DNA of 64,000 bases from Halomicronema sp. CCY15110 (GCF_016888165.1 NZ_JACSWC010000299.1:46193-110192), one strand, 5' to 3'. Numbered from the stretch's first letter, positions 20,816 to 55,213 are shown. Made by a program: numbers and translations. The notes: generated by a model not told the origin, from the letters alone.

Positions 20816-21193
20816 AATCGGGAAGAGTCAGACATAAGCCGGGTTCTGTTCTCTCAGACGAGCTGAGAGGGCGATTATCTATCTGGGACGGCTGTTACCA
20901 ACCGCCTCTTGCGGTACACCTACAGCGAGACAGGAAAAAGACCAACCCTTGTCTCTGCGACCTTGCTCCCGACCGGGGTTTACCGAGCCAGCACCTCTCG
21001 ATGCTGCTGGTGCGCTCTTACCGCACCTTTGCACCCTTACCTGTGAGCGATCGCTCCATCGGCGGTATGTTTCTGTGGCACTATCCTCACGGTCACCCGC
21101 ACTGGGCGTTACCCAGCAAGTCTGGTCTTTCGGGAGCCCGGACTTTCCTCGGGCCAGCCATGCCAACCCGTAATCGCCTCGCTAGCTCTTCCC
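20816..21193 (-). ncRNA. rnpB: RNase P RNA (type A)
   Basis: Minus strand contains GGAAAGUCCGGGCUCC (P4, rc of 21131-21147), GGUAAGAGCGCACCAGC and ACAGAACCCGGCUUAU. The 5' GGGAAGAG pairs with 3' CUCUUCCC to form P1. Overlapped by spurious ORFs 20879..21166 and 20949..21207. Confidence 0.85.
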
Positions 21194-42565: not shown

Positions 42566-42638
42566 TACCCCCAGGGGAATTCGAATCCCCGTCGCCTCCG
42601 TGAAAGGGAGGTGTCCTAGGCCTCTAGACGATGGGGGC
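42566..42638 (-). tRNA. tRNA-Glu (anticodon UUC), no encoded CCA
   Basis: Minus-strand sequence GCCCCCATCGTCTAGAGGCCTAGGACACCTCCCTTTCACGGAGGCGACGGGGATTCGAATTCCCCTGGGGGTA. 7-bp acceptor stem GCCCCCA/TGGGGGT. T-loop GGGGATTCGAATTCCCC. Anticodon loop CTTTCAC. Confidence 0.85.
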
Positions 42639-43884: not shown

Positions 43885-45759
43885 TTAGTTTGCTGGATTA
43901 GTGGATGAGACTTGCCACCAGCGGACGGTTTCATCGGCGGCGGTGCTGAACAGGGTCTGGCCATCCGGCGCGAATCGCAAATCACTGATCGTCCAGCCGT
44001 GATGCAGCACTGTGACCCGGTGGCGGTTGGCCGAGGCCCATTGCCAGAGGCGAATGGTGCCATCGCGACTGCCGATCGCCAGCCAGGTTTCATCCGCACT
44101 GAGGGCGATCGCGCTGACGGCATCCTGACATCGTTCGAGTTCTGCGTGCTGCCCAAAATCGAGGAGCGACCACACCACGACGCGCCCGGTGCGATCGCCG
44201 GTGATGAGGGCGGGGTCGCTGGCGCTCAGGGTCACCGCTCGTAGCGGGGCTTTGGCCGTCCAAGTATGCAGTAATTGACCGCTGGGGAGTGCCCACAGTC
44301 TCAAGGTGCCCGCTTCGCCCACACTGGCCAGGCGCGTGCCGTCGGGACTCAGCGCGAGATCGTTGACTCGGCCCGCATGACGCCTGAGATCGAAGCTGCG
44401 GGTTCCCTGGTTCAGATCCCAAAGCGAGATGCGGCCGGCGACATCAGCCACCGCCAACGTTTTGCCATCGGGGGTGAGGGCGATCGCGGTAATTTGCCCA
44501 CCGGGCTGTCGCAACGATTGTTGCAATCGATAGGTGGTCAAATCCCATTGCAAAATCTGGCCGTCTTGCCCAGCGGTGATCAGGCGATCGCCCGCTGGCT
44601 GAAACGCTACTGCCGTGACGGCATCCCGGTGACCCGCGCCGAAGCCCAGCCGGGGGGCCAGGGTTTGTAGCACTTCGCCAGTTTGCCGATCCCAAAGCTG
44701 TACGGTGTGATCGCTGTTGGCGGTGGCTATGGCTCGACCATCGGGACTCAGGGCCAGGGCGTTCACCGTGCGCCCTGGGGTCGGCCAGGTGTGGGTACAG
44801 CGCCAGGTGGTTGTCTGAGGGGCCAGCAGCGAGTTGGGCCGCGATCGCGGTGGCCCCAGTCCGGCGGGTGCCAGCTCTGCCAAAACGGCGTCAGCCGTGG
44901 CGTAACGACTGCGGAGCGATCGCGCCACCAGGCGATCAAGCACTCGCCCTAGGGCCTCGCCCACGGGGGTCGGCGCAAAGTCACGCCACACCCACCGATC
45001 TGCCGCCACGGAGTAAAGATCAAAGGGATGTTGCCCCGTCAATAAATGCAGGCAAGTGATGCCCAAGCCGTAGAGATCGCTGGCGGGCACGGCTTTGCCC
45101 AGGGCTTGCTCGGGGGCGGCGTAACCGGCGCTGCCGATAATAGTGCCCGTGCGTTCCAGTTCCGTGGCAGTGGGGGCGGTGCGGGCAGCGCCAAAATCGA
45201 CGAGGATCGGCGGCCCCTCGGGAGGCAGCAAAATATTTTCGGGCTTGATGTCGCGATGGATGATGCCCTGTTGGTGAATGAATTGCAGCACGGGCAACAG
45301 CGCCATCAGCAGCGATCGCACCTGCGGTTCATCAAAGACTCCGTCGGCCTGCAAGACCTGCTCCAAATTGCGTCCGGCGATGTAGGACTGCACCAGACAA
45401 AGGTCGCGGCTCGATTCCAGAATGGCGATGAGTTGAGGAATCTGGGGGTGTCGTCCCAGCGTGGCGAGGCGTTTGGCCTCGGCCAAGTCCCGCTCACGGC
45501 TGCCCTGCGATCGCACAATTTGTTTGATCACGCATTGCTGCGGCGGCGACTCGCCTTCATCCCACGCTAAAAACGTGCGCCCAAAGCCCCCCCGCCCCAG
45601 TTCCTTCACAGGCCGAAAGCGCTGACCCAATCGCAACCGCGCCCCGCAGGACTGGCAGCGATCGCGATCGTCCCCATTTTCCGGGTGGGGGCATTGGGGA
45701 TTGATGCAGAGGGTGACCACGACAGTGTGCGCCATGCATGGCGGTATCAGTGCTCTCAA
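43885..45759 (-). CDS. Ser/Thr protein kinase with N-terminal zinc ribbon and C-terminal WD40 repeats
   Basis: CxxC...CxxC N-term. Kinase motifs GRGGFGRTF, HRDIKPENILL, DFG, APE. C-terminal WD40 repeats (IRLWD, LWDL etc.). Confidence 0.85.
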   Translation of the reverse strand: MRALIPPCMAHTVVVTLCINPQCPHPENGDDRDRCQSCGARLRLGQRFRPVKELGRGGFGRTFLAWDEGESPPQQCVIKQIVRSQGSRERDLAEAKRLATLGRHPQIPQLIAILESSRDLCLVQSYIAGRNLEQVLQADGVFDEPQVRSLLMALLPVLQFIHQQGIIHRDIKPENILLPPEGPPILVDFGAARTAPTATELERTGTIIGSAGYAAPEQALGKAVPASDLYGLGITCLHLLTGQHPFDLYSVAADRWVWRDFAPTPVGEALGRVLDRLVARSLRSRYATADAVLAELAPAGLGPPRSRPNSLLAPQTTTWRCTHTWPTPGRTVNALALSPDGRAIATANSDHTVQLWDRQTGEVLQTLAPRLGFGAGHRDAVTAVAFQPAGDRLITAGQDGQILQWDLTTYRLQQSLRQPGGQITAIALTPDGKTLAVADVAGRISLWDLNQGTRSFDLRRHAGRVNDLALSPDGTRLASVGEAGTLRLWALPSGQLLHTWTAKAPLRAVTLSASDPALITGDRTGRVVVWSLLDFGQHAELERCQDAVSAIALSADETWLAIGSRDGTIRLWQWASANRHRVTVLHHGWTISDLRFAPDGQTLFSTAADETVRWWQVSSTNPAN

Positions 45760-45809: not shown

Positions 45810-46580
45810 TTAAGGGGCGACCTTGGCCGTCGTACCGCGCAGGAGATCCATGATTTCGTCGCAATGGTGGTGAAACGGGTCAGTCCGGCGGACGGCATAG
45901 GCGCGGTGCGGCCCCAGGTGGATGCTCACTTCTGCGGCGATCGTGCCAGGACGCGCTGAGAGCACGTAGATGCGCTGGGAGAGAAACACGGCCTCGCTGA
46001 CATCGTGAGTAATCATCAAAATGCTGATGCCCAGGCGATCCCATAGTTCCAGTAAAAATTCCTGCATACTTTCTTTGGTCTGCACGTCTAAAGCGCCAAA
46101 GGGTTCGTCCATCAGCAAGATTTTGGGATGGTTAGCCAGGGCGCGGGCGATCGCTACCCGCTGTTTCATACCGCCGGACAGTTCCTTGGGCAGCGATCGC
46201 GAAAACTGCGCCAGCCCCACCACATCCAGATAGCGCGACGCTTCTTCGCGCCGCTGCTTGGCCGCCATACCTTGCAGCTTCAGGCCAAATTCCACATTCT
46301 CCTGCACCGTCATCCAGGGATAGAGGGTGTAGCTCTGGAACACCATGCCGCGATCGGCCCCCGGCCCAATCACCGGCTGCCCATCCACGGTGATTTCCCC
46401 CGCTGTGGGCATCTCTAGCCCCGCCACCAGTCGCAGCAAAGTGGACTTGCCGGAACCCGACGCGCCGACGGCACACACAAATTCCCCCGTTTCAACGTGC
46501 ATGTTGATGTCTTTGAGGGCGACGAGCGGGCCTTGGGGCGTGTTGAACTGTTTGTGGACTTTGGCGATTTCCAGGTGCAT
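45810..46580 (-). CDS. ABC transporter ATP-binding protein (NitT/TauT nitrate/sulfonate/bicarbonate family), part of the guanidine-associated transporter
   Basis: Walker A GASGSGKSTLL, signature SGGMKQRV, Walker B LLMDEPF. Confidence 0.85.
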   Translation of the reverse strand: MHLEIAKVHKQFNTPQGPLVALKDINMHVETGEFVCAVGASGSGKSTLLRLVAGLEMPTAGEITVDGQPVIGPGADRGMVFQSYTLYPWMTVQENVEFGLKLQGMAAKQRREEASRYLDVVGLAQFSRSLPKELSGGMKQRVAIARALANHPKILLMDEPFGALDVQTKESMQEFLLELWDRLGISILMITHDVSEAVFLSQRIYVLSARPGTIAAEVSIHLGPHRAYAVRRTDPFHHHCDEIMDLLRGTTAKVAP

Positions 46581-46582
46581 GG

Positions 46583-46640
46583 GTTTGGGGTGAGGGTAGC
46601 TGGGTAGCTGGGTTGTTGGGTAGCAGGGTGTGAGGGTGCT
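46583..46640. repeat. Array of degenerate octamer repeats (TGGGTAGC-like), left arm of an inverted pair flanking the four-helix-bundle gene
   Basis: ggtgagggtagctgggtagctgggttgttgggtagcagggtgtgagggtg, read directly. Confidence 0.6.
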
Positions 46641-46693
46641 TGGGTGGAAAAGGGGGAATTCTGGAAGTGTCTGTCTACACAGGGTGCGGGTGT

Positions 46694-47077
46694 ATGGGTA
46701 AGGGAATAGTCAGGGTGTATCGGGATTTGGAGGTGTATCAGACAGCATTTGCGGCAGCGATGGAGATTTTTGAGGCTTCTAAACGGTTTCCAGTGGAAGA
46801 GCGGTATTCGTTGACGGATCAGATTCGACGGTCTTCACGTTCTGTTTGTGCAAATTTGGGAGAAGCATGGCGGAAGCGACGTTATCGGGCCGCTTTCGTA
46901 GCAAAGCTGTATGACTGTCAAGCCGAGGCGACCGAGACCCAAATTTGGCTAGAGTTCTCTGTCAAATGCCAATATCTTGAACCGGAATTAGCTCGCAACC
47001 TCTATCGTGCCTACGACCAAGTGCTGGGTCAGCTTGCCAATATGGTCAAAAACGCCTCTCAATGGACAGTCCAGTAG
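46694..47077 (+). CDS. Four-helix-bundle protein (23S rRNA intervening-sequence protein family)
   Basis: IVRVYRDLEVYQTAFAAAMEIFEASKRFPVEERYSLTDQIRRSSRSVCANLGEAWRKRRY is the family pattern. Antisense to the surrounding ABC operon. Start set at internal ATG 46694. Confidence 0.7.
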   Translation: MGKGIVRVYRDLEVYQTAFAAAMEIFEASKRFPVEERYSLTDQIRRSSRSVCANLGEAWRKRRYRAAFVAKLYDCQAEATETQIWLEFSVKCQYLEPELARNLYRAYDQVLGQLANMVKNASQWTVQ

Positions 47078-47170
47078 TTGTTTACCCTCACACTCTCACA
47101 CTCAACTACCCAGCCACCCAACTACCCTCACACCCTTCCACTCCTACTTCACCGCACCTACTTCACCGCC
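47078..47170. repeat. Inverted copy of the octamer-repeat array (GCTACCCA/CACCCTCA units), right arm
   Basis: ccctcacactctcacactcaactacccagccacccaactaccctcacaccc is the reverse complement of the left arm. Confidence 0.6.
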
Positions 47171-48129
47171 CACTGACAGGTCATCCGCATGGCAGCTTGC
47201 AGAGAGAGATCGAGGATGAATCCGATGAGGCCCAGCACCAGTAAGCAGGCGAAGATGTCGTCGGTTTGAAAGAATTTTTGGGAGATGGCGATGCGCTTGC
47301 CGAGGCCGCTGTCGGCGGCGACGAGTTCGGCGACGATGACCAGGTTCCAGGAGGCGGCCATGTTGACGCGCAGGGTGTCAAAGAGGCTGGGGATAACGTA
47401 GGGGGTGATGACTTGCATCAGTACCTGGCGGCGATCGCCCCCCAAGGTATAAGTCGTCTCAATCAGCTCTTTGGGCACAAACTTGACCGCATCCATAATC
47501 ATCAGCGTGTTGAAAAACACGGTACCGATAAAAATCAGCGCAATTTTCGGTTCTTCACCCAGGCCCAAATAAATGATCAAAAGGGGAATAAAGGCCGGAG
47601 CGGGCATGTAACGAACGATGCCGACGAGGGGTTCTAGCAGCGATCGCACGCTGCGAAACGCCCCCATGCCAATACCCAGCGGAATCGCCACCAGCGCCGC
47701 CAGCAAAAAGCCCGCCGACACCCGCAAAAAGCTCGCCAGCGTGTCGGTCAGCAAATAGCCCTCTTGCCACAAGGTCACCAGGGACGCGATGACCATGCCG
47801 GGCGTCGGTAGAAACTTGTTGTCAATCCAGCCGGTGCTCGCGATCGCCCACCACAGCAACAACGGCACCAACACCGACATCACCATCAGCACCCATTTCA
47901 GCCGGATTGGGATGTCCTCAGCAATGCGCCAAAACACCGTCGGCTTCAGGCTAGGGGCCGCTGTAGACGACTCTGTATACGTGGGTGGAGAGGAGACGAC
48001 TGTCATGATGAGACCTGCGAGAGAGCGGCTAATTGAGAATGCCCGGTTTTGAGGAAGAGTGTGAGAGTAGCTGGGTAGTAGGGTGGCTGGGTAGCAGAGT
48101 GGCTGGGTAGCGGGCTGTGAATCCCTCAC
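47158..48129 (-). CDS. ABC transporter permease (NitT/TauT family)
   Basis: Permease signature region with conserved G..P spacing. 323 aa, 6 TM helices. Confidence 0.8.
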   Translation of the reverse strand: MRDSQPATQPLCYPATLLPSYSHTLPQNRAFSISRSLAGLIMTVVSSPPTYTESSTAAPSLKPTVFWRIAEDIPIRLKWVLMVMSVLVPLLLWWAIASTGWIDNKFLPTPGMVIASLVTLWQEGYLLTDTLASFLRVSAGFLLAALVAIPLGIGMGAFRSVRSLLEPLVGIVRYMPAPAFIPLLIIYLGLGEEPKIALIFIGTVFFNTLMIMDAVKFVPKELIETTYTLGGDRRQVLMQVITPYVIPSLFDTLRVNMAASWNLVIVAELVAADSGLGKRIAISQKFFQTDDIFACLLVLGLIGFILDLSLQAAMRMTCQWAVK

Positions 48130-48170
48130 ACCCTCACACCCTCACACCCTGCCACCCAAGCCCTAAGGGC
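48040..48170. repeat. Octamer-repeat array in both orientations (GGGTAGTAGGGTGGCTGGGTAGC... then CCCTCACACCCTCACACCCTCACACCC)
   Basis: Read directly. Intergenic between permease and binding-protein genes. Confidence 0.6.
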
Positions 48171-48191
48171 AGGCTTCGCCAACACACTCCC

Positions 48192-49247
48192 CTACGCATT
48201 CGCCTCGGCATAGGCCGTCACAAACTGGTCATCCAACACGGCTTCCAGATCCGGCGCTTCGGGAATGAAGCCGACTTCGACCATGAAGTTCGCCATCTCT
48301 TCAGCGGCGTAGGGCATATGCACCATGCTGTCGCCAGGGCTGAAGGCTTCCAGGTTTTCTTCGAGGGTGAAGAAGCGGGTGCCTTCCAGGTACTTTTCGA
48401 AGTCAGCGGCATCCACGCTGGCGCGATCGGCCATGATTTCGTAGGCGCGTTCCTGGTTTTCGTCAATAAAGGTGAGGATGTCGAACCAGGTGTTGACCAA
48501 GGCTTGCACCACTTCTGGCTGCTCGTCGATCAGGGTTTGGGTCACCACGAGCAGGTCAGGGATGGCACCGGGGAAGTCGGCAGAACTGGTGAGTTCTTTG
48601 CTGCCTTCACGGGTCAGCGCCGTTTCCCAGAAGGGTACCCAACCCGCAAAGGCGTCGGCTTGTCCAGCGGCAAAGGCGGCAGCGGCAGCGCCGGTTTCCA
48701 GGTTTTCAATATTCACATCATCGCGGGATTGGCCCGCTTCTTCCAGGGCCAGGGTCAGCAAAAAGTCGCCAACGACGCCTTCTTCCAGCGCCACGGATGC
48801 GCCGACGAGGTCAGCAACCGTCTCGATTTCCGCCGACACGATGACTTTGTCATTACCCGCCGAGTTGTCGTTCACCGCCACGGCGACTTCGCCATTCACG
48901 GCTTCTCCGGCGAAGGAAATGGTGTCGTTGAGGGTTTGGCAGTTGGCGTCGAGTTGTCCAGAGGCGAGCGCTTGCATGGATTCTAAATAGCCGTCGAACC
49001 AAATGAGTTCCACGTTGACGCCGTTGGCGTCGAAGAGTCCTTCTTGTTCGGCGATCGCCCAAGGCCACCAACCAGCCCAACTGCTGTAGCCCATCACAAT
49101 GGGCGTTTCATTGATGAATTCGACGGCTTCGCCAGCGGTATCAGTATCGGTCGGGGCGTCGGCAGTGTCTTGAGCGCACCCGATGGTGACAAATAGGGTA
49201 CAAAAGAACGCCAGTAACACTGGCAAGAGAGAGCGACGTTTCATCAT
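48192..49247 (-). CDS. ABC transporter substrate-binding lipoprotein (NMT1/NitT/TauT family), putative guanidine-binding
   Basis: Signal/lipobox (LLAFFCTLFVTIGC). 351 aa periplasmic binding protein that precedes permease and ATPase. Confidence 0.75.
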   Translation of the reverse strand: MMKRRSLLPVLLAFFCTLFVTIGCAQDTADAPTDTDTAGEAVEFINETPIVMGYSSWAGWWPWAIAEQEGLFDANGVNVELIWFDGYLESMQALASGQLDANCQTLNDTISFAGEAVNGEVAVAVNDNSAGNDKVIVSAEIETVADLVGASVALEEGVVGDFLLTLALEEAGQSRDDVNIENLETGAAAAAFAAGQADAFAGWVPFWETALTREGSKELTSSADFPGAIPDLLVVTQTLIDEQPEVVQALVNTWFDILTFIDENQERAYEIMADRASVDAADFEKYLEGTRFFTLEENLEAFSPGDSMVHMPYAAEEMANFMVEVGFIPEAPDLEAVLDDQFVTAYAEANA

Positions 49248-49287
49248 GGTGTTGAGACAGTGAACAAACTAGACAGCAAACACTTGA

Positions 49288-49977
49288 TCAGGCAGAAGTC
49301 AGTTCTGGAGACTTCACGGCAGAGCGCACCCAGTCAAACCAGAGCGCTAATCCTTCCCCAGACTTGGCCGACACCGGGATCACGGTGACGTGGGGATTGA
49401 TCTGGCGCACGTTGGCTTCGATCAGCGCTAGATCCACATCTAAATAGGGAGCGAGATCAATTTTTGTAATCAGAAGCACATCTGCTTCGCGAAACATGAC
49501 GGGATACTTCAGCGGTTTGTCTTCGCCCTCGGTGACGCTAAGCAGGGCAACTTTGGCGTGTTCTCCCACTCCAAACTCAGCGGGACAGACGAGATTGCCC
49601 ACATTTTCGACAATCACCATATCGAGGTCTTGGGGCGCATAGTCATGGCTCAGGGTGTGAATGCCGCCAGCGACCATGCGGGCGTCGAGGTGGCAGGCGC
49701 GGCCCGTGTTGATGGCGATCACGGGAACGTCGTATTGGCGGAGGCGATCGGCATCGAGTTCGGTGGTCATGTCGCCTTCGATCACGGCCAGGTTGAGGTC
49801 AGTCGTCAGGGCCGCCAGGGTCTTTTCTAGCAGGGCGGTTTTGCCCGCACCGGGGCTGCTCATCAGGTTTATGCAGGTGATGCCCCAGGCGTCGAAGTGG
49901 GTGCGGTTGTGGTCAGCGCCTTCCTGGTTGGCGTGGAGGAGGTTGATGCCGAGGGTGTCGTCGATGATTTGGTGCAT
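49288..49977 (-). CDS. hypB: HypB-like GTPase (Ni-insertion accessory protein, GhaB-like)
   Basis: [15 protein letters not shown]-loop. HypB/UreG family layout. Start moved to the internal MHQ Met to remove the 64-bp overlap with the upstream gene. The track ORF start at 50097 is over-extended. Confidence 0.75.
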
Positions 49978-50033
49978 GGTTTTAAAAGGGTTGGGGCGCA
50001 CGGCCGTGCGCCCGTACAGGATGCGTGAATGGG

Positions 50034-51392
50034 TCAGAAAAATTTCAGGTAGCGTTGGTGTTCCCAGTCGGAGATGTGGGTGTGGTAGTCCTCCCATTCT
50101 TGGCGTTTGAAATCGGTGTAGGTGCGATACATCAGCGGCCCCATCACCGCCTGGCTCAGCGGGTCACGCTCGAAGGCGTCAACCGCTTCTGACAGGGTGC
50201 GGGGCAGCAGATCGATGCCCATCGCATCCAGTTCCGGCAGGGTGTAGTTGTACATGTTTTCGGTGTGGGGATCGCCGGGGTCGAGTTCCTGTTCGATGCC
50301 CTCCAGTCCCGCTGCGAGCATCATCGCCGCCCCCAGGTACAGGTTGGTGGAAATATCGGCGGCGCGACACTCCACCCGTCCCCCCGCGAGGGGAATGCGG
50401 AGCATGTTGGTGCGGTTGTTGTTGCCGTAGCAAATGTAGACCGGGGCCCAGGTGAAGCCGGACATGCTGCCTTTGCGGATCAGGCGTTTGTAGCTATTGA
50501 CCGTGGGGCAGGTGACGGCGCAGATGGCTTTGGCATGGCGCAGGACGCCCGCGATGAACTGATAGCCGAGTTTCGAGAGCTGGCAGCCACGGGGATCACT
50601 GGGGTCTTCAAACAGGTTTTTGCCCGTCTCCAGATCGGCGAGGGACATGTTGTAGTGCGCGCCGCTGCCGGTGCGGTTGGCGAAAGGCTTAGGCATGAAG
50701 CTGGCGAAGTAGCCGTGTTTGCGCACAATTTCCTTCACCATGAGGCGAAAAAAGGTGAGGCGATCGCCCATGGTCAGCGCATCCGCGTAGGCAAAGTCGG
50801 TCTCAAACTGGCCGTTGGCATCTTCATGGTCAAAGGAATACACGTCCCAGCCGAGGTGGTTCATGGTGTCCACCAGTTCGGTAAGCCAGCCATAGTTGTC
50901 GAGCAGGCCGGTGAGGTCGTAGCAGGGCTTGGCCAGGGTGTCGCGATCGCTGATCGGCTCAAACCCCTGCTCGGTTTCTTTAAACACAAAGAATTCCGTC
51001 TCAATGCCCAGGTTGAACTTAAAGCCCAGGCTGGCGGCTTTGTCCAACATCCGCTTCAGAATGATGCGGGAACACGCCTCGAAGGGTTGACCGGACAGGT
51101 ACAGATCGCTGGCGAACCAGACCACTTCCTTATTCCACGGCAGGATGGTGGCGGACTGGGCATCGGGCATCGCCGCCACTTCTTCGTCGCTGATGTCCTG
51201 GGGCACGCCGTCCAGGGCCGCCCCGGTGAACAGTTCGGAGCCCTGCATCATTTGGCCCAGGTGGCTCAGGGGCACCATTTTGGCTTTCGACATGCCGTGA
51301 ATATCGACGTAGCTGGCGAGGGCATATTTGACGCCCTGGGATTCCAGCGAAGATTTGAGGGTGGCGATTTCGGCAATGGTGTCGGTGGTCAT
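50034..51392 (-). CDS. Glutamine synthetase family protein (type I-like catalytic domain, 452 aa)
   Basis: [11 protein letters not shown] beta-grasp/catalytic region. GS-like ATP-binding regions throughout. Confidence 0.85.
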
Positions 51393-51515
51393 GGGTGGGT
51401 GGAGAAGGGGATGGCAGCGATGGTCGGTGAAACATTCGGGTGCGGTAGGGGCGAGGCATTCTCGTTTGAAATGTTGTGGTTGAGGCTTAAAAGTTACTGC
51501 GAGAATGCCTCGCCC

Positions 51516-51896
51516 CTACGGGATGGGGGAATTGGGCGATCGCGCAGTCTGGGCATATTGCACGCGATCGATTTTGAGTTCCCGACCGGAGCGAATATCG
51601 TCGAGGGGCGATCGGCAGGTGGGGCAGGCATATTGCTGCCCGATTTCGGGACGGTATTCGGCCTGGCAGGGGTGGCAAAAGGCGATCAGCGGCGTTTCTT
51701 GAATCACCAGTTCGGCCCCATCGAGAAAGGTGCCCCGCGTCTGCACCTCAAAGGCGAACTGCAAGCTGGCGGGTTCGACGCAGGTGAACTTGCCCACAGT
51801 GAGAAACACCTTTTCTACGGGCGGGCGATCGGGCTGCGACTCCCACCAGTCTCGCAGGGTGATGACGAGGGCCTTGGTCATGTCGGTTTCGTGCAT
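51516..51896 (-). CDS. hypA: HypA-like Ni-insertion protein (GhaA-like)
   Basis: MHE N-terminus. Zinc finger CHPC...CPTC. Length approx 126 aa. Confidence 0.8.
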   Translation of the reverse strand: MHETDMTKALVITLRDWWESQPDRPPVEKVFLTVGKFTCVEPASLQFAFEVQTRGTFLDGAELVIQETPLIAFCHPCQAEYRPEIGQQYACPTCRSPLDDIRSGRELKIDRVQYAQTARSPNSPIP

Positions 51897-52180
51897 GGCG
51901 GCGGTAGGAGTGTGAGGGTGAATGGGTGGTTGGGTAGGGGGTGGCTGGGTAGGGGGTGGGAGAGTGAGTGAAGTGGGTGGGGTGAAGGGTAGGTGAGCTT
52001 GGTGTGTGATGGAAGCCTTACGCAATCAGGCTGAAATCCTCGATTTCTCGTTTCCAAGGTTGGGATTTACAAAAAAATCAGATCACTTCCGAACGATTTT
52101 TCCATTCGCCTACATCACCCACTCCACCTATTACCACCCTGCTACCCCCACACCCTGCCACCCTCACACACTTCTACTCC
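51897..52180. repeat. Two octamer-repeat arrays (G-rich then C-rich orientation) flanking an approx 110 bp spacer between hypA-like and gdmH
   Basis: gtgagggtgaatgggtggttgggtagggggtggctgggtagggggtggg ... and ccaccctgctacccccacaccctgccaccctcacaca, read directly. Confidence 0.55.
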
Positions 52181-53346
52181 CACGCCTGATCAACGTTCAT
52201 ATTCGCCTCGTCGCTGATATAGTCCGGCTTCTCCTGGCGAGGTAGCTGACCGGAGACGACCAGATGGGCCATGGTGTCGCAGATGACGCGGGTGGCCATG
52301 AGAGCAGTCATGTCACTGACATCGTAGGGGGGCGAGACTTCCACGATTTCGATGCCGCAAACGGTGGTTTCCTGCACGATGCGTTTGAGCAGGTGCAGGG
52401 CTTCGCGGGGCATCAGGCCGCCGGGTTCGGGCCAGCCGGTGCCGGGGACAAAGCCCGCATCAATGCAGTCAATGTCGAAGCTGATCCACACGCAGTCGGT
52501 ACCGTCGGTGGCTTTTTCAATGGCAAAATCAGCCGCCGCATCTAGGCCCATTTCCATAATGTCGGTGACGGTGAGGATGTTGGTGCCGCGCTCGCGACAG
52601 ACTTTGACGCCCTGCCGGGGGACTTGCCAGCCACCGATGCCGAGCTGCACGAGATTTTCGGCGGGCGCGTTGGCCATGTTGGTGGCGTGGAACCAAGGGC
52701 AGGTGTGCATCCGTTCGTCGAGGTCGGTTTCCTGGGTGTCGACGTGGCGATCGAAGTGGATGATGCCGACTTTTTTATCCCCTAAATGACGGCAGACGCC
52801 GCGCACGGTGGGGAAGCCGATGGAGTGGTCGCCACCCATAATGATCGGGAAGGCCCCGGAGCTGAAAATGTGGGCAATGCCTTTGGAAATTTGGTCAAAG
52901 GATTTTTCATTATTGGCGGGAATGGTGAACACGTCGCCCACATCGCAGAGGGTGATTTGCTCCCGCAGATCGACCCCGAGCTCAAAGTTGTAGGGGGTGT
53001 AGAGGGCGGAGATTTTGCGGATGCCCTGGGGGCCAAAGCGGGTGCCGGGGCGGTAGGTGGTGCCAGAGTCGTGGGGCACGCCGACGATCGCGACATCGTA
53101 GTTCCCCACCTTCCGCACATCTTCTAAATAGGGCGCTTTGAGGAAGGTGTTGATGCCCGCGTAGTGGGGCAACTCGCCGCGTGAAAAGGTGGGAATGGTG
53201 CGATCGCGAATGCTCTCTGCCGCCTCTAGCCCGTAGGTCAAACCTTGGTCAACTTCTTGTTGCCAGCCCGTCATGGGCAAGCGCGCTTCCTTTTGCAACG
53301 CCTCATTGGCCTCACTGGGGCGGCGAAAGGTGGGTTCATCCGTCAT
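52174..53346 (-). CDS. gdmH: Ureohydrolase (arginase/agmatinase family), putative Ni-dependent guanidine hydrolase
   Basis: Agmatinase-family motifs GGDHSI, DAH-type metal ligands (HFDRHVD, SFDIDCID). Start at MTDEP ATG 53346 with RBS aaggag (gives 390 aa). Sits downstream of a guanidine-I riboswitch and upstream of hypA/hypB-like genes. Confidence 0.7.
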   Translation of the reverse strand: MTDEPTFRRPSEANEALQKEARLPMTGWQQEVDQGLTYGLEAAESIRDRTIPTFSRGELPHYAGINTFLKAPYLEDVRKVGNYDVAIVGVPHDSGTTYRPGTRFGPQGIRKISALYTPYNFELGVDLREQITLCDVGDVFTIPANNEKSFDQISKGIAHIFSSGAFPIIMGGDHSIGFPTVRGVCRHLGDKKVGIIHFDRHVDTQETDLDERMHTCPWFHATNMANAPAENLVQLGIGGWQVPRQGVKVCRERGTNILTVTDIMEMGLDAAADFAIEKATDGTDCVWISFDIDCIDAGFVPGTGWPEPGGLMPREALHLLKRIVQETTVCGIEIVEVSPPYDVSDMTALMATRVICDTMAHLVVSGQLPRQEKPDYISDEANMNVDQAWE

Positions 53347-53390
53347 CACAATCTCCTTTGACAGGTCATTTGCCAGCGTATTCAGCACCA

Positions 53391-53444
53391 AAACGAAAGC
53401 CCGAGAGGGCGACAGAGACAAGATCTCTATCTAACCTCCCGGGC
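53391..53444 (-). terminator. Intrinsic terminator of the riboswitch expression platform (GCCCGGGAGG ... CCCUCUCGGGC + UUUCGUUUU)
   Basis: The stem's 5' arm overlaps the conserved 3' end of the aptamer. A U-tract follows. Read from the minus strand. Confidence 0.6.
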
Positions 53445-53568
53445 TTTTATCCCGCCGTGTACTGGCAAAAAGTCTGAGGCATGCTTAGCCAAACCTTGAA
53501 CCAGCCGCTTCTCTCGGACCAGACATTCAAACCGTGCAAGCCAGCCTGAATCGGAACCCTAGAAGCTA
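53435..53568 (-). promoter_or_regulatory. Guanidine-I riboswitch (ykkC class)
   Basis: Minus strand reads CUAGGGUUCCG ... CUGGUCCGAGAG ... ACACGGCGGGAUAAAAGCCCGGGAGG. This matches the ykkC conserved blocks in order and spacing. Confidence 0.85.
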
Positions 53569-54040
53569 ACCATAACCCCCTCAGTACGGGGAATTGAAAA
53601 CTGAATATCTGCATTAATACCAAGCGAACTGTGAGCGGACCGTAGCTGAGGCTACGGAAGTTTTATTTGGTCGGCAGCGATCGCCGCGCGATCGCGTGCT
53701 CACGACTCTGGCGGCCCAGCGGCTGAGTTTATGAATCTTTTTGAAGTTTGACGCGGCGCTGGGGCGGGGCGGCGGGCGGCTGTATCGAGCGGAGAGGGTA
53801 AGCGCCAGCCCTTGCCAGTCAAGGCTTTTGGTGGCCTTGGTGCAGATGTGGCAAGGGGCGATCGCGGGGGTGAGTGAGCCGGGCAGGGCGGGCGGTTGCC
53901 CGATCGCCACAGGACTGAGGGCGCGATCGCCGCAGACACAACAATGAAGGGTAGAATAATCATCCTGTGACTACGCGACCCCCTTGTCCAGCTTAAGTTT
54001 GTCCCTCTGTAATTAGCGTTAACGCTTCTGCTTCAACGAC

Positions 54041-55213
54041 ATGCTCAATCCCAACCTCGATGAAATTCAACTGCATCCAGAGGAGTACGAGCGCTTTTCC
54101 AGGCACCTGATTCTGCCCGAAGTGGGTCTGGAAGGGCAAAAGCGCCTGAAGGCGGCTAGCGTACTCTGCATTGGTACCGGCGGTCTCGGCTCGCCCCTAC
54201 TGCTATATTTGGCCGCAGCGGGCATTGGCCGCATCGGCATCGTCGATTTCGATATTGTGGATAAGTCGAACCTGCAACGACAGGTCATCCACGGCACCTC
54301 GTGGGTCGGCAAGCCCAAAATCGAATCGGCTAAAGATCGCATTCAGGAAATCAACCCCTTTTGCCAGGTCGATCTCTATGAAACGCGCCTCTCGTCGGAG
54401 AATGCTCTCGACATTATCGAACCCTACGACGTGGTGGTCGATGGCACCGACAACTTCCCCACCCGCTATCTGGTCAACGACGCCTGTGTGCTGCTAAACA
54501 AGCCCAACGTCTACGGTTCGATCTTCCGGTTTGAGGGTCAGGCCACCGTATTCAACTACGAAGATGGCCCCAACTATCGCGACCTCTACCCCGAGCCGCC
54601 GCCACCCGGCATGGTACCTTCCTGCGCGGAAGGCGGCGTCCTCGGCATTTTGCCGGGCATCATCGGCGTCATCCAAGCGACGGAAACGGTGAAAATCATC
54701 ATCGGCAAAGGCCGCACCCTCAGCGGTCGCCTGTTGCTGTACAACTCTCTGGATATGACCTTCCGGGAATTGAAACTACGGCCTAATCCGGTGCGCCCCG
54801 TCATTGAAGAGCTGATCGACTATGAGCAGTTCTGCGGCATTCCCCAAGCGAAGGCGGCTGAGGAAGCGGAGCAGTCCGCCGTGCCAGAAATGAGCGTGAA
54901 AGAGCTGAAGGCCCTGCTCGATGCGAAAGGCGACAACGTCCTGCTGCTAGATGTGCGGAACCCCCATGAGTGGGAGATCGCCCAGATTCCCGGGGCGGTG
55001 CTGGTGCCCCTACCCGACATCGAAAAGGGTGAGGGTGTGGACAAGGTGAAGTCACTGCTCAACGGTCACGAGCTGGTAGTTCACTGTCGATCGGGAGTGC
55101 GATCGGCCAAGGCCCTCGGCATCCTGAAAGAAAGCGGCATCACTGGCACCAACGTCGCGGGCGGCATCCTCGCCTGGAGCGAAGAAATCGACCCCTCCGT
55201 CCCGCAGTATTAA
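54041..55213 (+). CDS. moeB: Molybdopterin-synthase adenylyltransferase MoeB/MoeZ (ThiF/E1-like + rhodanese domain)
   Basis: RFSRHLILPEVGLEGQKRLKAASVLCIGTGGLGSPLLLYLAAAGIG nucleotide-binding motif. CxxC pairs. C-terminal rhodanese domain with CRSGVRS active-site loop. Confidence 0.9.
   Translation: MLNPNLDEIQLHPEEYERFSRHLILPEVGLEGQKRLKAASVLCIGTGGLGSPLLLYLAAAGIGRIGIVDFDIVDKSNLQRQVIHGTSWVGKPKIESAKDRIQEINPFCQVDLYETRLSSENALDIIEPYDVVVDGTDNFPTRYLVNDACVLLNKPNVYGSIFRFEGQATVFNYEDGPNYRDLYPEPPPPGMVPSCAEGGVLGILPGIIGVIQATETVKIIIGKGRTLSGRLLLYNSLDMTFRELKLRPNPVRPVIEELIDYEQFCGIPQAKAAEEAEQSAVPEMSVKELKALLDAKGDNVLLLDVRNPHEWEIAQIPGAVLVPLPDIEKGEGVDKVKSLLNGHELVVHCRSGVRSAKALGILKESGITGTNVAGGILAWSEEIDPSVPQY

Follow-up and report, generated by a model that had tools for sequence, protein, structure and literature searches.

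We present here a conserved subfamily of GmaS-family ligases that has been recruited into the Guanidine-I riboswitch regulons of both known routes of guanidine degradation, in cyanobacteria and in other phyla. The gene that led to it lies in a 64,000-nucleotide stretch of Halomicronema sp. CCY15110 (GCF_016888165.1, NZ_JACSWC010000299.1:46193-110192), hereafter called the window. It encodes a glutamine synthetase (GS)-like protein, referred to as GSL, and is wedged into an operon that is almost certainly a guanidine uptake and breakdown system of the published Synechocystis type. Guanidine has only recently been recognized as a widespread nitrogen source. It is known to be degraded either by the nickel-dependent hydrolase GdmH or through a biotin-dependent guanidine carboxylase, and riboswitch-associated genes of unknown function have earlier led to a methylguanidine demethylation system and to the tRNA editing factor CtdA. 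The core of the operon is an ordinary, further member of a known system, and it is the wedged GSL that makes the locus a variant. No description linking a GS-like gene to guanidine riboswitches was found in the searchable literature.

The association between GSL and guanidine riboswitches was assessed on 80 genome loci centered on GSL relatives, compared by tblastn, clustering of open reading frames (ORFs) and riboswitch search. A Guanidine-I riboswitch is found in 31 of the 80 loci, with nine of these calls confirmed above the Rfam threshold, and in 22 loci GSL is inside a riboswitch-led operon. Such riboswitches are expected once or a few times per genome, so their presence at 31 loci represents a very large enrichment. 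The initial annotation of the window had placed the GS-like gene outside the described Synechocystis cluster. We agree, and the same wedged order, riboswitch-gdmH-ghaA-GSL-ghaB-gimABC, recurs in other cyanobacteria: it is seen in loci L001-L004, L014-L016, L056 and L069 and in the metagenome loci L083 and L093, spread over three GSL subclades.

Beyond what had been annotated, the GSL subfamily is also tied to guanidine riboswitches independently of gdmH. In the Nodosilinea-type loci L005-L013 (at least eight genomes) GSL is the first gene behind the riboswitch and is followed by gimABC and, in some cases, by a Rieske oxygenase gene; no gdmH is found up to 10 kb from GSL. Upstream, these loci are syntenic (CobQ, cluster 7) with the wedge loci L014, L016 and L069, so that the three nickel-related genes look to have been removed from an otherwise intact operon. 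The name Nodosilinea is not among the nearest GdmH clusters, which is weak evidence against a gdmH elsewhere in the genome. A third arrangement (L025, L028 and L035) reads riboswitch-gimC'-gimA'-GSL-gimB', with a metallo-beta-lactamase (MBL) hydrolase gene before GSL and an isochorismatase-like hydrolase gene after gimB' in some cases; in L027, L106 and L109 it is preceded by gdmH-ghaA-ghaB, with gaps of 35-85 nt in the L027 type. GSL also accompanies the carboxylase route. In Leptolyngbya boryana (L163) it stands beside a NitT/TauT transporter, two DUF1989 (CgdAB-type) genes and a guanidine carboxylase, and a carboxylase gene is no more than 10 kb from GSL in the cyanobacterial loci L030, L033 and L045, in gammaproteobacteria (L051, L053), Derxia (L061) and Planctomycetota (L074), and in L079.

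Several observations concern the company of these operons. A Rieske non-haem-iron oxygenase gene, absent from the window, is located directly 3' of gimC in Synechococcus CC9605, Nodosilinea and other loci (L081 14969-16039; L007 14227-15369; L015). Its best family match is the glycine betaine monooxygenase GbcA, below the cut-off; it is a second recurrent accessory of guanidine operons, possibly acting in N-demethylation or N-hydroxylation. In a Gloeobacterales metagenome-assembled genome (L033 6758-11338) a HypA-like gene, two binding-protein genes and GSL follow a Guanidine-I riboswitch, without gdmH, and a second riboswitch on the opposite strand leads two DUF1989 (CgdAB-type) genes. At L019 (14055-18108) a Guanidine-I riboswitch is followed by genes for two binding proteins, one on either side of a fatty-acid-desaturase-family protein, and then for a true creatininase (TIGR04448, 369 bits), an arrangement suggesting that in some cyanobacteria creatinine-type catabolism is under the control of guanidine sensing.

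GSL also occurs in contexts unrelated to guanidine. A creatininase-family gene is directly upstream in one of these; in another, GSL is preceded by a GATase1 gene and accompanied by a second GmaS-like ligase and by one alcohol and one aldehyde dehydrogenase; and in Micrococcaceae, genes for the Amt ammonium transporter and a TetR regulator lie on one side, with GSL and a MetX-like hydrolase on the other. Rfam scans found no riboswitch in the Arthrobacter, gammaproteobacterial, Streptomyces or GATase-context GSL loci. The pairing of GSL with the MetX-like alpha/beta hydrolase (PRK07581, 460 bits) was observed at 20 loci across phyla, including L063-L072 (Micrococcaceae), L062, L073, L080, L016, L029 and L059; in Arthrobacter and Pseudarthrobacter, Amt and TetR adjoin this pair. 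Taken over the riboswitch-led loci and the carboxylase loci, GSL is very probably a functional, co-regulated member of guanidine regulons and not a chance insertion.

Judged by its sequence, GSL is not a canonical glutamine synthetase and belongs to the GmaS or 'type III glutamate--ammonia ligase' family. Its closest solved relatives are the glutamate--methylamine ligases 9qur (GMAS; 420 bits, ~44% identity) and 7cql (RhGmaS; 331 bits, ~41%), whereas GS structures reach at most 267 bits. Residues were compared by alignment to the solved structures and in an alignment of 84 sequences. GSL carries Thr56 in place of GS Asp50', Ala59 in place of GS Ser53', and Trp315 at the position of the catalytic flap glutamate (Glu327 in E. 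coli and Salmonella, Glu304 in B. subtilis), and its flap has a five-residue insertion relative to GS. The features that set GmaS apart from GS are those found in GSL (PMC7948447). Since its motifs for ATP, glutamate and metal are all intact, GSL is predicted to be an active ligase.

The amine pocket is where GSL departs from GmaS. RhGmaS Gln175, Asn188, Ala48' and Trp189 (Tyr in 9qur) correspond to Ser186, Asp199, Thr56 and Phe200 of GSL. Gln175 and Asn188 are present in both solved GmaS proteins, and pocket residues of RhGmaS including these two have been shown to be important by mutagenesis (PMC7948447); in the GSL clade, Ser and Asp take their places in about 70 of about 70 sequences. The signature K-T-A-Y-Y-S-F-D-E-E-(T/I/V)-D-F-W is invariant across these ~70 sequences (63-96% identity, with Actinobacteria and Proteobacteria among them), and it extends to representatives of 50%-identity clusters that are only ~45-55% identical to the window protein. 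GSL is 76-96% identical in many filamentous cyanobacteria. A neighbor-joining tree places GSL in a separate clade, sister to 9qur-type GmaS.

We tentatively favor, at somewhat under an even chance, an explanation in which the operon breaks down guanidine and GSL captures a small nitrogen nucleophile that is released, most probably ammonia. GSL would fix this nucleophile onto glutamate and would thus provide nitrogen capture and detoxification that are guanidine-inducible and do not depend on the housekeeping GS. Ammonia is the leading single candidate for the substrate, itself a rather less secure proposal than the explanation as a whole. The two routes that GSL accompanies have in common only guanidine, an importer and ammonia, and ammonia is the one product common to GdmH and the carboxylase. 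Urea is excluded as the substrate because the carboxylase route makes none. Ammonia is also favored because its product, glutamine, would require no additional dedicated enzyme, and the operon of the window contains no gamma-glutamyl-processing gene. This reading accounts for every context in which GSL was seen, including that beside the Amt ammonium transporter in Micrococcaceae, and RhGmaS itself turns over NH4+ (PMC7948447).

A number of observations weigh against a role in ammonia capture. The Km of RhGmaS for NH4+ is ~8.7 mM (PMC7948447). The riboswitch-GSL-gimABC operons of Nodosilinea, with no guanidine-degrading gene within 10 kb, would be odd for an ammonia trap unless gdmH lies elsewhere. 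GSL lacks both residues that define ammonia chemistry in GS, Asp50' and the flap glutamate, and to our knowledge GS-like enzymes without them have proved to be amine ligases. Synechocystis grows on guanidine without GSL. Among 80 metagenome loci centered on gdmH, about 60 of them informative, a GSL-clade gene is found in only about four (L083, L093, L106 and L109). Finally, locus L084, whose GdmH is 91% identical to that of the window and which has the same insertion of a four-helix-bundle gene described below, has ghaA followed directly by ghaB, without GSL; no remnants of GSL were found in its ghaA-ghaB spacer. Synechococcus CC9605 likewise carries gdmH-ghaA-ghaB-gimABC and the Rieske oxygenase without GSL. 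GSL is thus an accessory gene, dispensable for the guanidine system.

The existence of L084, a close relative with the same operon and the same insertion, could be taken to mean that GSL is a mere passenger between ghaA and ghaB with no role in guanidine metabolism, all the more as repeat elements and an antisense ORF have plainly entered the spacers of the window operon. This is very unlikely because the linkage to riboswitches, importers and both degradation pathways recurs so often, in many arrangements and several phyla; moreover the GSL ORF is intact and conserved at the level given above, and the wedge persists across the three subclades.

A more serious competitor to ammonia capture, unlikely in our estimate, is that GSL joins glutamate to guanidine itself. 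The product, gamma-glutamylguanidine, is an N-acylguanidine that would then be hydrolysed: acylation would activate the stable guanidinium for hydrolysis, as carboxylation does in the carboxylase route, and the isochorismatase-like, MBL-fold or creatininase-like neighbors of GSL would be the downstream hydrolases. The Nodosilinea-type operons are best explained in this way, since they appear to have lost the nickel-related genes while keeping the riboswitch, GSL as first gene and the importer (with or without the Rieske oxygenase), and the recurrent neighbors of the acyl-urea/acyl-guanidine hydrolase type fit as well: in L025, L028 and L035 an MBL-fold protein and a biuret-hydrolase-like isochorismatase are found without gdmH. 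The pocket, too, is roomier and more acidic than that of GmaS at exactly those amine-site residues validated by mutagenesis, and the loss of Asp50' and the flap glutamate is normally not seen in ammonia enzymes. Against this, the activity would duplicate that of GdmH in the window and that of guanidine carboxylase in loci such as L163 and L051, and no enzyme that could process an acylguanidine is encoded in the window operon. The same signature occurs next to Amt in Arthrobacter, and in gammaproteobacteria, without guanidine riboswitch or genes, and separate riboswitch-controlled units of transporter and hydrolase exist (L086, L087), so the gdmH of Nodosilinea may lie elsewhere. We know of no chemical precedent for the ligation of glutamate to guanidine. 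GdmH-type guanidinases, for their part, reject substituted guanidines (PMC11410670). If true, a glutamate--guanidine ligase would be a third route of guanidine assimilation, driven by ATP and needing neither nickel nor biotin, and would explain why riboswitch-GSL-importer operons of the Nodosilinea type were kept after the loss of gdmH, ghaA and ghaB.

Less probable again is a GmaS-type role for GSL, with methylamine or some other small alkylamine as the substrate, freed from substituted guanidines such as methylguanidine or creatine-type compounds that share the transporters. Its nearest solved relatives are indeed glutamate--methylamine ligases, with which it shares the flap tryptophan and the missing Asp50'; creatininase-family and GbcA-like Rieske oxygenase genes recur beside it; and Amt, its neighbor in Micrococcaceae, is also a carrier of methylammonium. 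Against this, guanidinases yielded no urea from methylguanidine (PMC11410670), so that no methylamine would be set free by GdmH; in every GSL, Ser and Asp stand in place of Gln175 and Asn188 of GmaS; and the N-methylglutamate synthase (glutamate-synthase-like) family is not among the top 25 neighbor families listed for the 80 GSL loci. Ammonia capture keeps its place as our leading reading. Either GSL is a dedicated nitrogen-capture enzyme that couples guanidine breakdown to glutamine, or it represents a new ATP-dependent attack on guanidine; in both cases it is a good experimental lead that is cheap to test.

The only published remark found in this connection is that a 'GS' gene flanks gdmH in Synechococcus WH8020. 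At the marine-type locus L140 (3731-9088), an SSS-family symporter gene and gdmH are divergent, each led by a Guanidine-I riboswitch, followed by a BCCT betaine transporter gene and a ligase with the GmaS signature, 55% identical to RhGmaS. This ligase is of a different subfamily from GSL and lies 2.7 kb away, outside the operon. L140 probably corresponds to the arrangement reported for WH8020.

The identity of the operon rests in part on the ureohydrolase. The reference cluster, sll1077-sll1082 (gdmH-ghaA-ghaB-gimABC) of Synechocystis sp. PCC 6803, was reportedly described by Funck et al. in 2022. The ATG start chosen for the window gene is preceded by AGGAG at 7 nt, and the protein matches Sll1077 (7esr/7oi1) with 826.7 bits, residues 1-390 aligning to 3-392 of 7esr. 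The second structural match, at 583 bits, is 9fek, deposited as 'putative agmatinase 2', which is presumably the Nitrospira guanidinase. All remaining arginase-fold structures score at most 172 bits, with solved agmatinases at 126-132 bits, so the protein does not group with true agmatinases or arginases, a grouping that would have refuted the initial annotation. The motif SFDIDCIDAGFVPGTGWPEPGGLMPREAL is identical at 28 of 29 positions to the GdmH consensus SFDIDCIDAGFVPGTGWPEPGGLLPREAL quoted in 10.1101/2025.03.14.643060.

An agmatinase or arginase, with the cluster serving polyamine or arginine catabolism, is accordingly extremely improbable. Such an assignment would draw on the public records, where a protein 100% identical to that of the window is named 'agmatinase' (Halomicronema sp. 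CCY15110), and on the NCBIfam model TIGR01230 'agmatinase', which is exceeded barely (179.8 against a cut-off of 174.3). It is contradicted by the far higher score to the biochemically characterized Sll1077, by the Guanidine-I riboswitch at the head of the operon and by the adjoining nickel chaperone genes, which are not the context of a manganese enzyme. Thus the initial annotation was right to read the ureohydrolase as a guanidine hydrolase. Among the automated names, 'agmatinase' is incorrect here, and 'type III glutamate--ammonia ligase' is as yet unproven.

The remaining genes complete the parallel with sll1077-sll1082 that had been drawn from the sequence: riboswitch, HypA/HypB paralogues and NitT/TauT transporter all have their counterparts in the gdmH-ghaA-ghaB-gimABC system characterized in Synechocystis, which is under NtcA control and has a Guanidine-I riboswitch acting on transcription (PMC12704784). 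Next to gdmH stand its dedicated HypA and HypB paralogues, both scoring above their family cut-offs. As read from the translations, GhaA has an N-terminal MHE nickel motif and two CxxC pairs, and GhaB has the P-loop SSPGAGKT, a CH motif, ENVGNLVCP and TKID. The NitT/TauT set is complete, with binding protein, permease and ATPase. The guanidinium-binding residues of Sll1080 are W59, W62, D135, F205 and D233 (PMC12704784); W57, W60, D133, W203 and D231 of GimA would correspond to them at a constant offset of -2, a match of numbering and thus indirect evidence. GimABC would bring guanidine into the cell, where GdmH, loaded with nickel by GhaA and GhaB, would cleave it to urea and ammonia.

The leader region contains a further element that the initial annotation did not list. 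An exact match to the NtcA consensus GTA-N8-TAC lies upstream of the riboswitch and 22 nt upstream of a -10-like TATTAAT (53613-53619). Only five exact boxes occur in the 64-kb window, and the position of this one before TATTAAT fits a putative function in activation by NtcA, which also regulates gdmH in Synechocystis (PMC12704784). The aptamer retains all three conserved segments, CUAGGGUUCCG, GGUCCGAGAG and ACGGCGGGAUAAAAGCCCGGGAG, intact. Downstream, the 5' arm of the terminator, AAAGCCCGGGAGG (53435-53447), is the 3' part of aptamer stem P3, and the terminator region has a minimum free energy of -49.3 kcal/mol (z = -4.1 against shuffled sequences). An ON-switch is predicted, as this is its usual layout, and the overlap implies competition between terminator and aptamer. 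Transcription from the NtcA-type promoter would enter the aptamer; without guanidine, the terminator would borrow the 3' strand of P3 and halt it, whereas with guanidine the aptamer would hold and the operon would be read.

The spacer between ghaB and gimA is 40 nt, and no exact NtcA consensus (zero mismatches) is found upstream of gimA, so the transporter genes are probably on the same transcript. A scan of the operon for promoter and terminator consensus sites found them no more frequent than in shuffled sequence, and therefore gives no evidence for internal promoters or terminators. From this arrangement we infer a single nitrogen-regulated, guanidine-induced operon, in which NtcA control, ligand response and co-transcription are all putative. 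The riboswitch and the seven minus-strand ORFs named by the initial annotation were all recovered in place by ORF, family and Rfam searches; their coordinates and those of the other elements are given in Table 1.

Table 1. Features of the guanidine operon and its spacers (positions in the window; aa, amino acids)
Feature	Position	Strand	Evidence or remark
NtcA-type box GTAGCCTCAGCTAC (GTA-N8-TAC)	53642-53655	-	exact consensus match
Guanidine-I riboswitch aptamer	53434-53573	-	RF00442 74.7 bits vs gathering score 63, E 1.9e-11, model 1-107
Expression platform, predicted terminator	53389-53447	-	13-bp stem, then CGUUUUGG (U-rich tail)
gdmH, Ni-dependent guanidine hydrolase, 390 aa	52174-53346	-	PF00491; match to Sll1077
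gdmH-ghaA spacer, 277 nt	51897-52173		GT-rich/CA-rich inverted repeat arms 51910-51937 and 52142-52169
ghaA, HypA-like Ni metallochaperone, 126 aa	51516-51896	-	TIGR00100 114 bits vs cut-off 88; PF01155
Perfect 20-bp hairpin, 35-nt loop, ghaA-GSL	51445-51519	-	overlaps ghaA stop codon; no U-tract after
GSL, GmaS-family gamma-glutamyl ligase, 452 aa	50034-51392	-	PF00120; TIGR03105 578.7 bits vs 469.6
ghaB, HypB-like GTPase, 229 aa	49288-49977	-	TIGR00073 301 bits vs 121; PF02492
gimA, NitT/TauT periplasmic binding protein, lipoprotein-type signal	48192-49247	-	TIGR01728 264.8 bits; TIGR03427 ('urea-carboxylase-associated' binding protein) 144 bits
gimB, permease	47158-48006 (ORF up to 48129)	-	family searches
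Four-helix-bundle (23S rRNA intervening-sequence protein family) ORF	46640-47077 (element 46587-47134)	+	TIGR02436 89 bits; PF05635 96 bits
gimC, ABC ATPase	45810-46580	-	family searches

The spacers of the operon carry repeat elements and an ORF that had escaped the initial annotation. The four-helix-bundle ORF lies antisense between gimB and gimC, with 51-nt inverted repeats (GT-rich/CA-rich, 82% complementary) on either side. The same gimB-gimC insertion is shared by the metagenome loci L083 and L084, and a homologue is located between gdmH and ghaA in L001. The element resembles a mobile cassette; in the operon mRNA its arms would pair into a long stem. GT-rich/CA-rich inverted repeats of this type recur twice more, with no ORF inside, in the gimA-gimB spacer (~48010-48190) and in the gdmH-ghaA spacer, which measures 15-50 nt in other wedge loci; both probably stem from the cassette, as footprints or as miniature versions of it. 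One such repeat lies between ghaA and GSL in L015. The stretch 48006-48129 of the gimB ORF is translated CA-rich repeat, and the true start of gimB is probably the ATG at 48006. The hairpin between ghaA and GSL was considered as a regulatory element and dropped: it is not conserved in other wedge loci and is thus probably not required.

Around the operon, a Ser/Thr protein kinase fused to WD40 repeats (43885-45759, minus strand) begins 50 nt 3' of gimC on the same strand, and a gene for a MoeB adenylyltransferase (54041-55213, plus strand) is divergent from the operon promoter region. Elsewhere the window holds a class A RNase P RNA (20820-21189, minus strand, 260 bits) and a tRNA (42566-42638, minus strand), whose anticodon was read by eye as UUC (Glu).

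Compared with known systems, GSL resembles GlnA (GS type I) in its fold and in the motifs GSGxH, NSYKR and NR...RIP, at ~37% identity, whereas GlnA has Asp50', Ser53' and the flap glutamate and is without the five-residue flap insertion. The GmaS enzymes RhGmaS (7cql) and 9qur are closer: like GSL they match TIGR03105, have the flap tryptophan, lack Asp50' and keep Asp177, Glu179, Glu186, Tyr147 and Lys30'. They differ in having Gln175, Asn188 and Ala48' where all GSL-clade sequences have Ser, Asp and Thr, and GSL, unlike GmaS, occurs with guanidine riboswitches, importers and degradation genes. The riboswitch-controlled carboxylase pathway (carboxylase, CgdAB and allophanate hydrolase) has GSL as a neighbor too; that route is biotin-dependent whereas GSL is not, and the window has the nickel-hydrolase route instead. 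The Synechocystis system shares with the window the riboswitch class, a terminator-type platform, the gene order, the HypA/HypB maturases, the NitT/TauT importer and an upstream NtcA-type box. It has a second promoter upstream of gimA, whereas the set in the window is probably one transcript. What distinguishes the window from Synechocystis is the antisense four-helix-bundle ORF with the repeat elements in the spacers and, above all, the GmaS-family ligase wedged between ghaA and ghaB.

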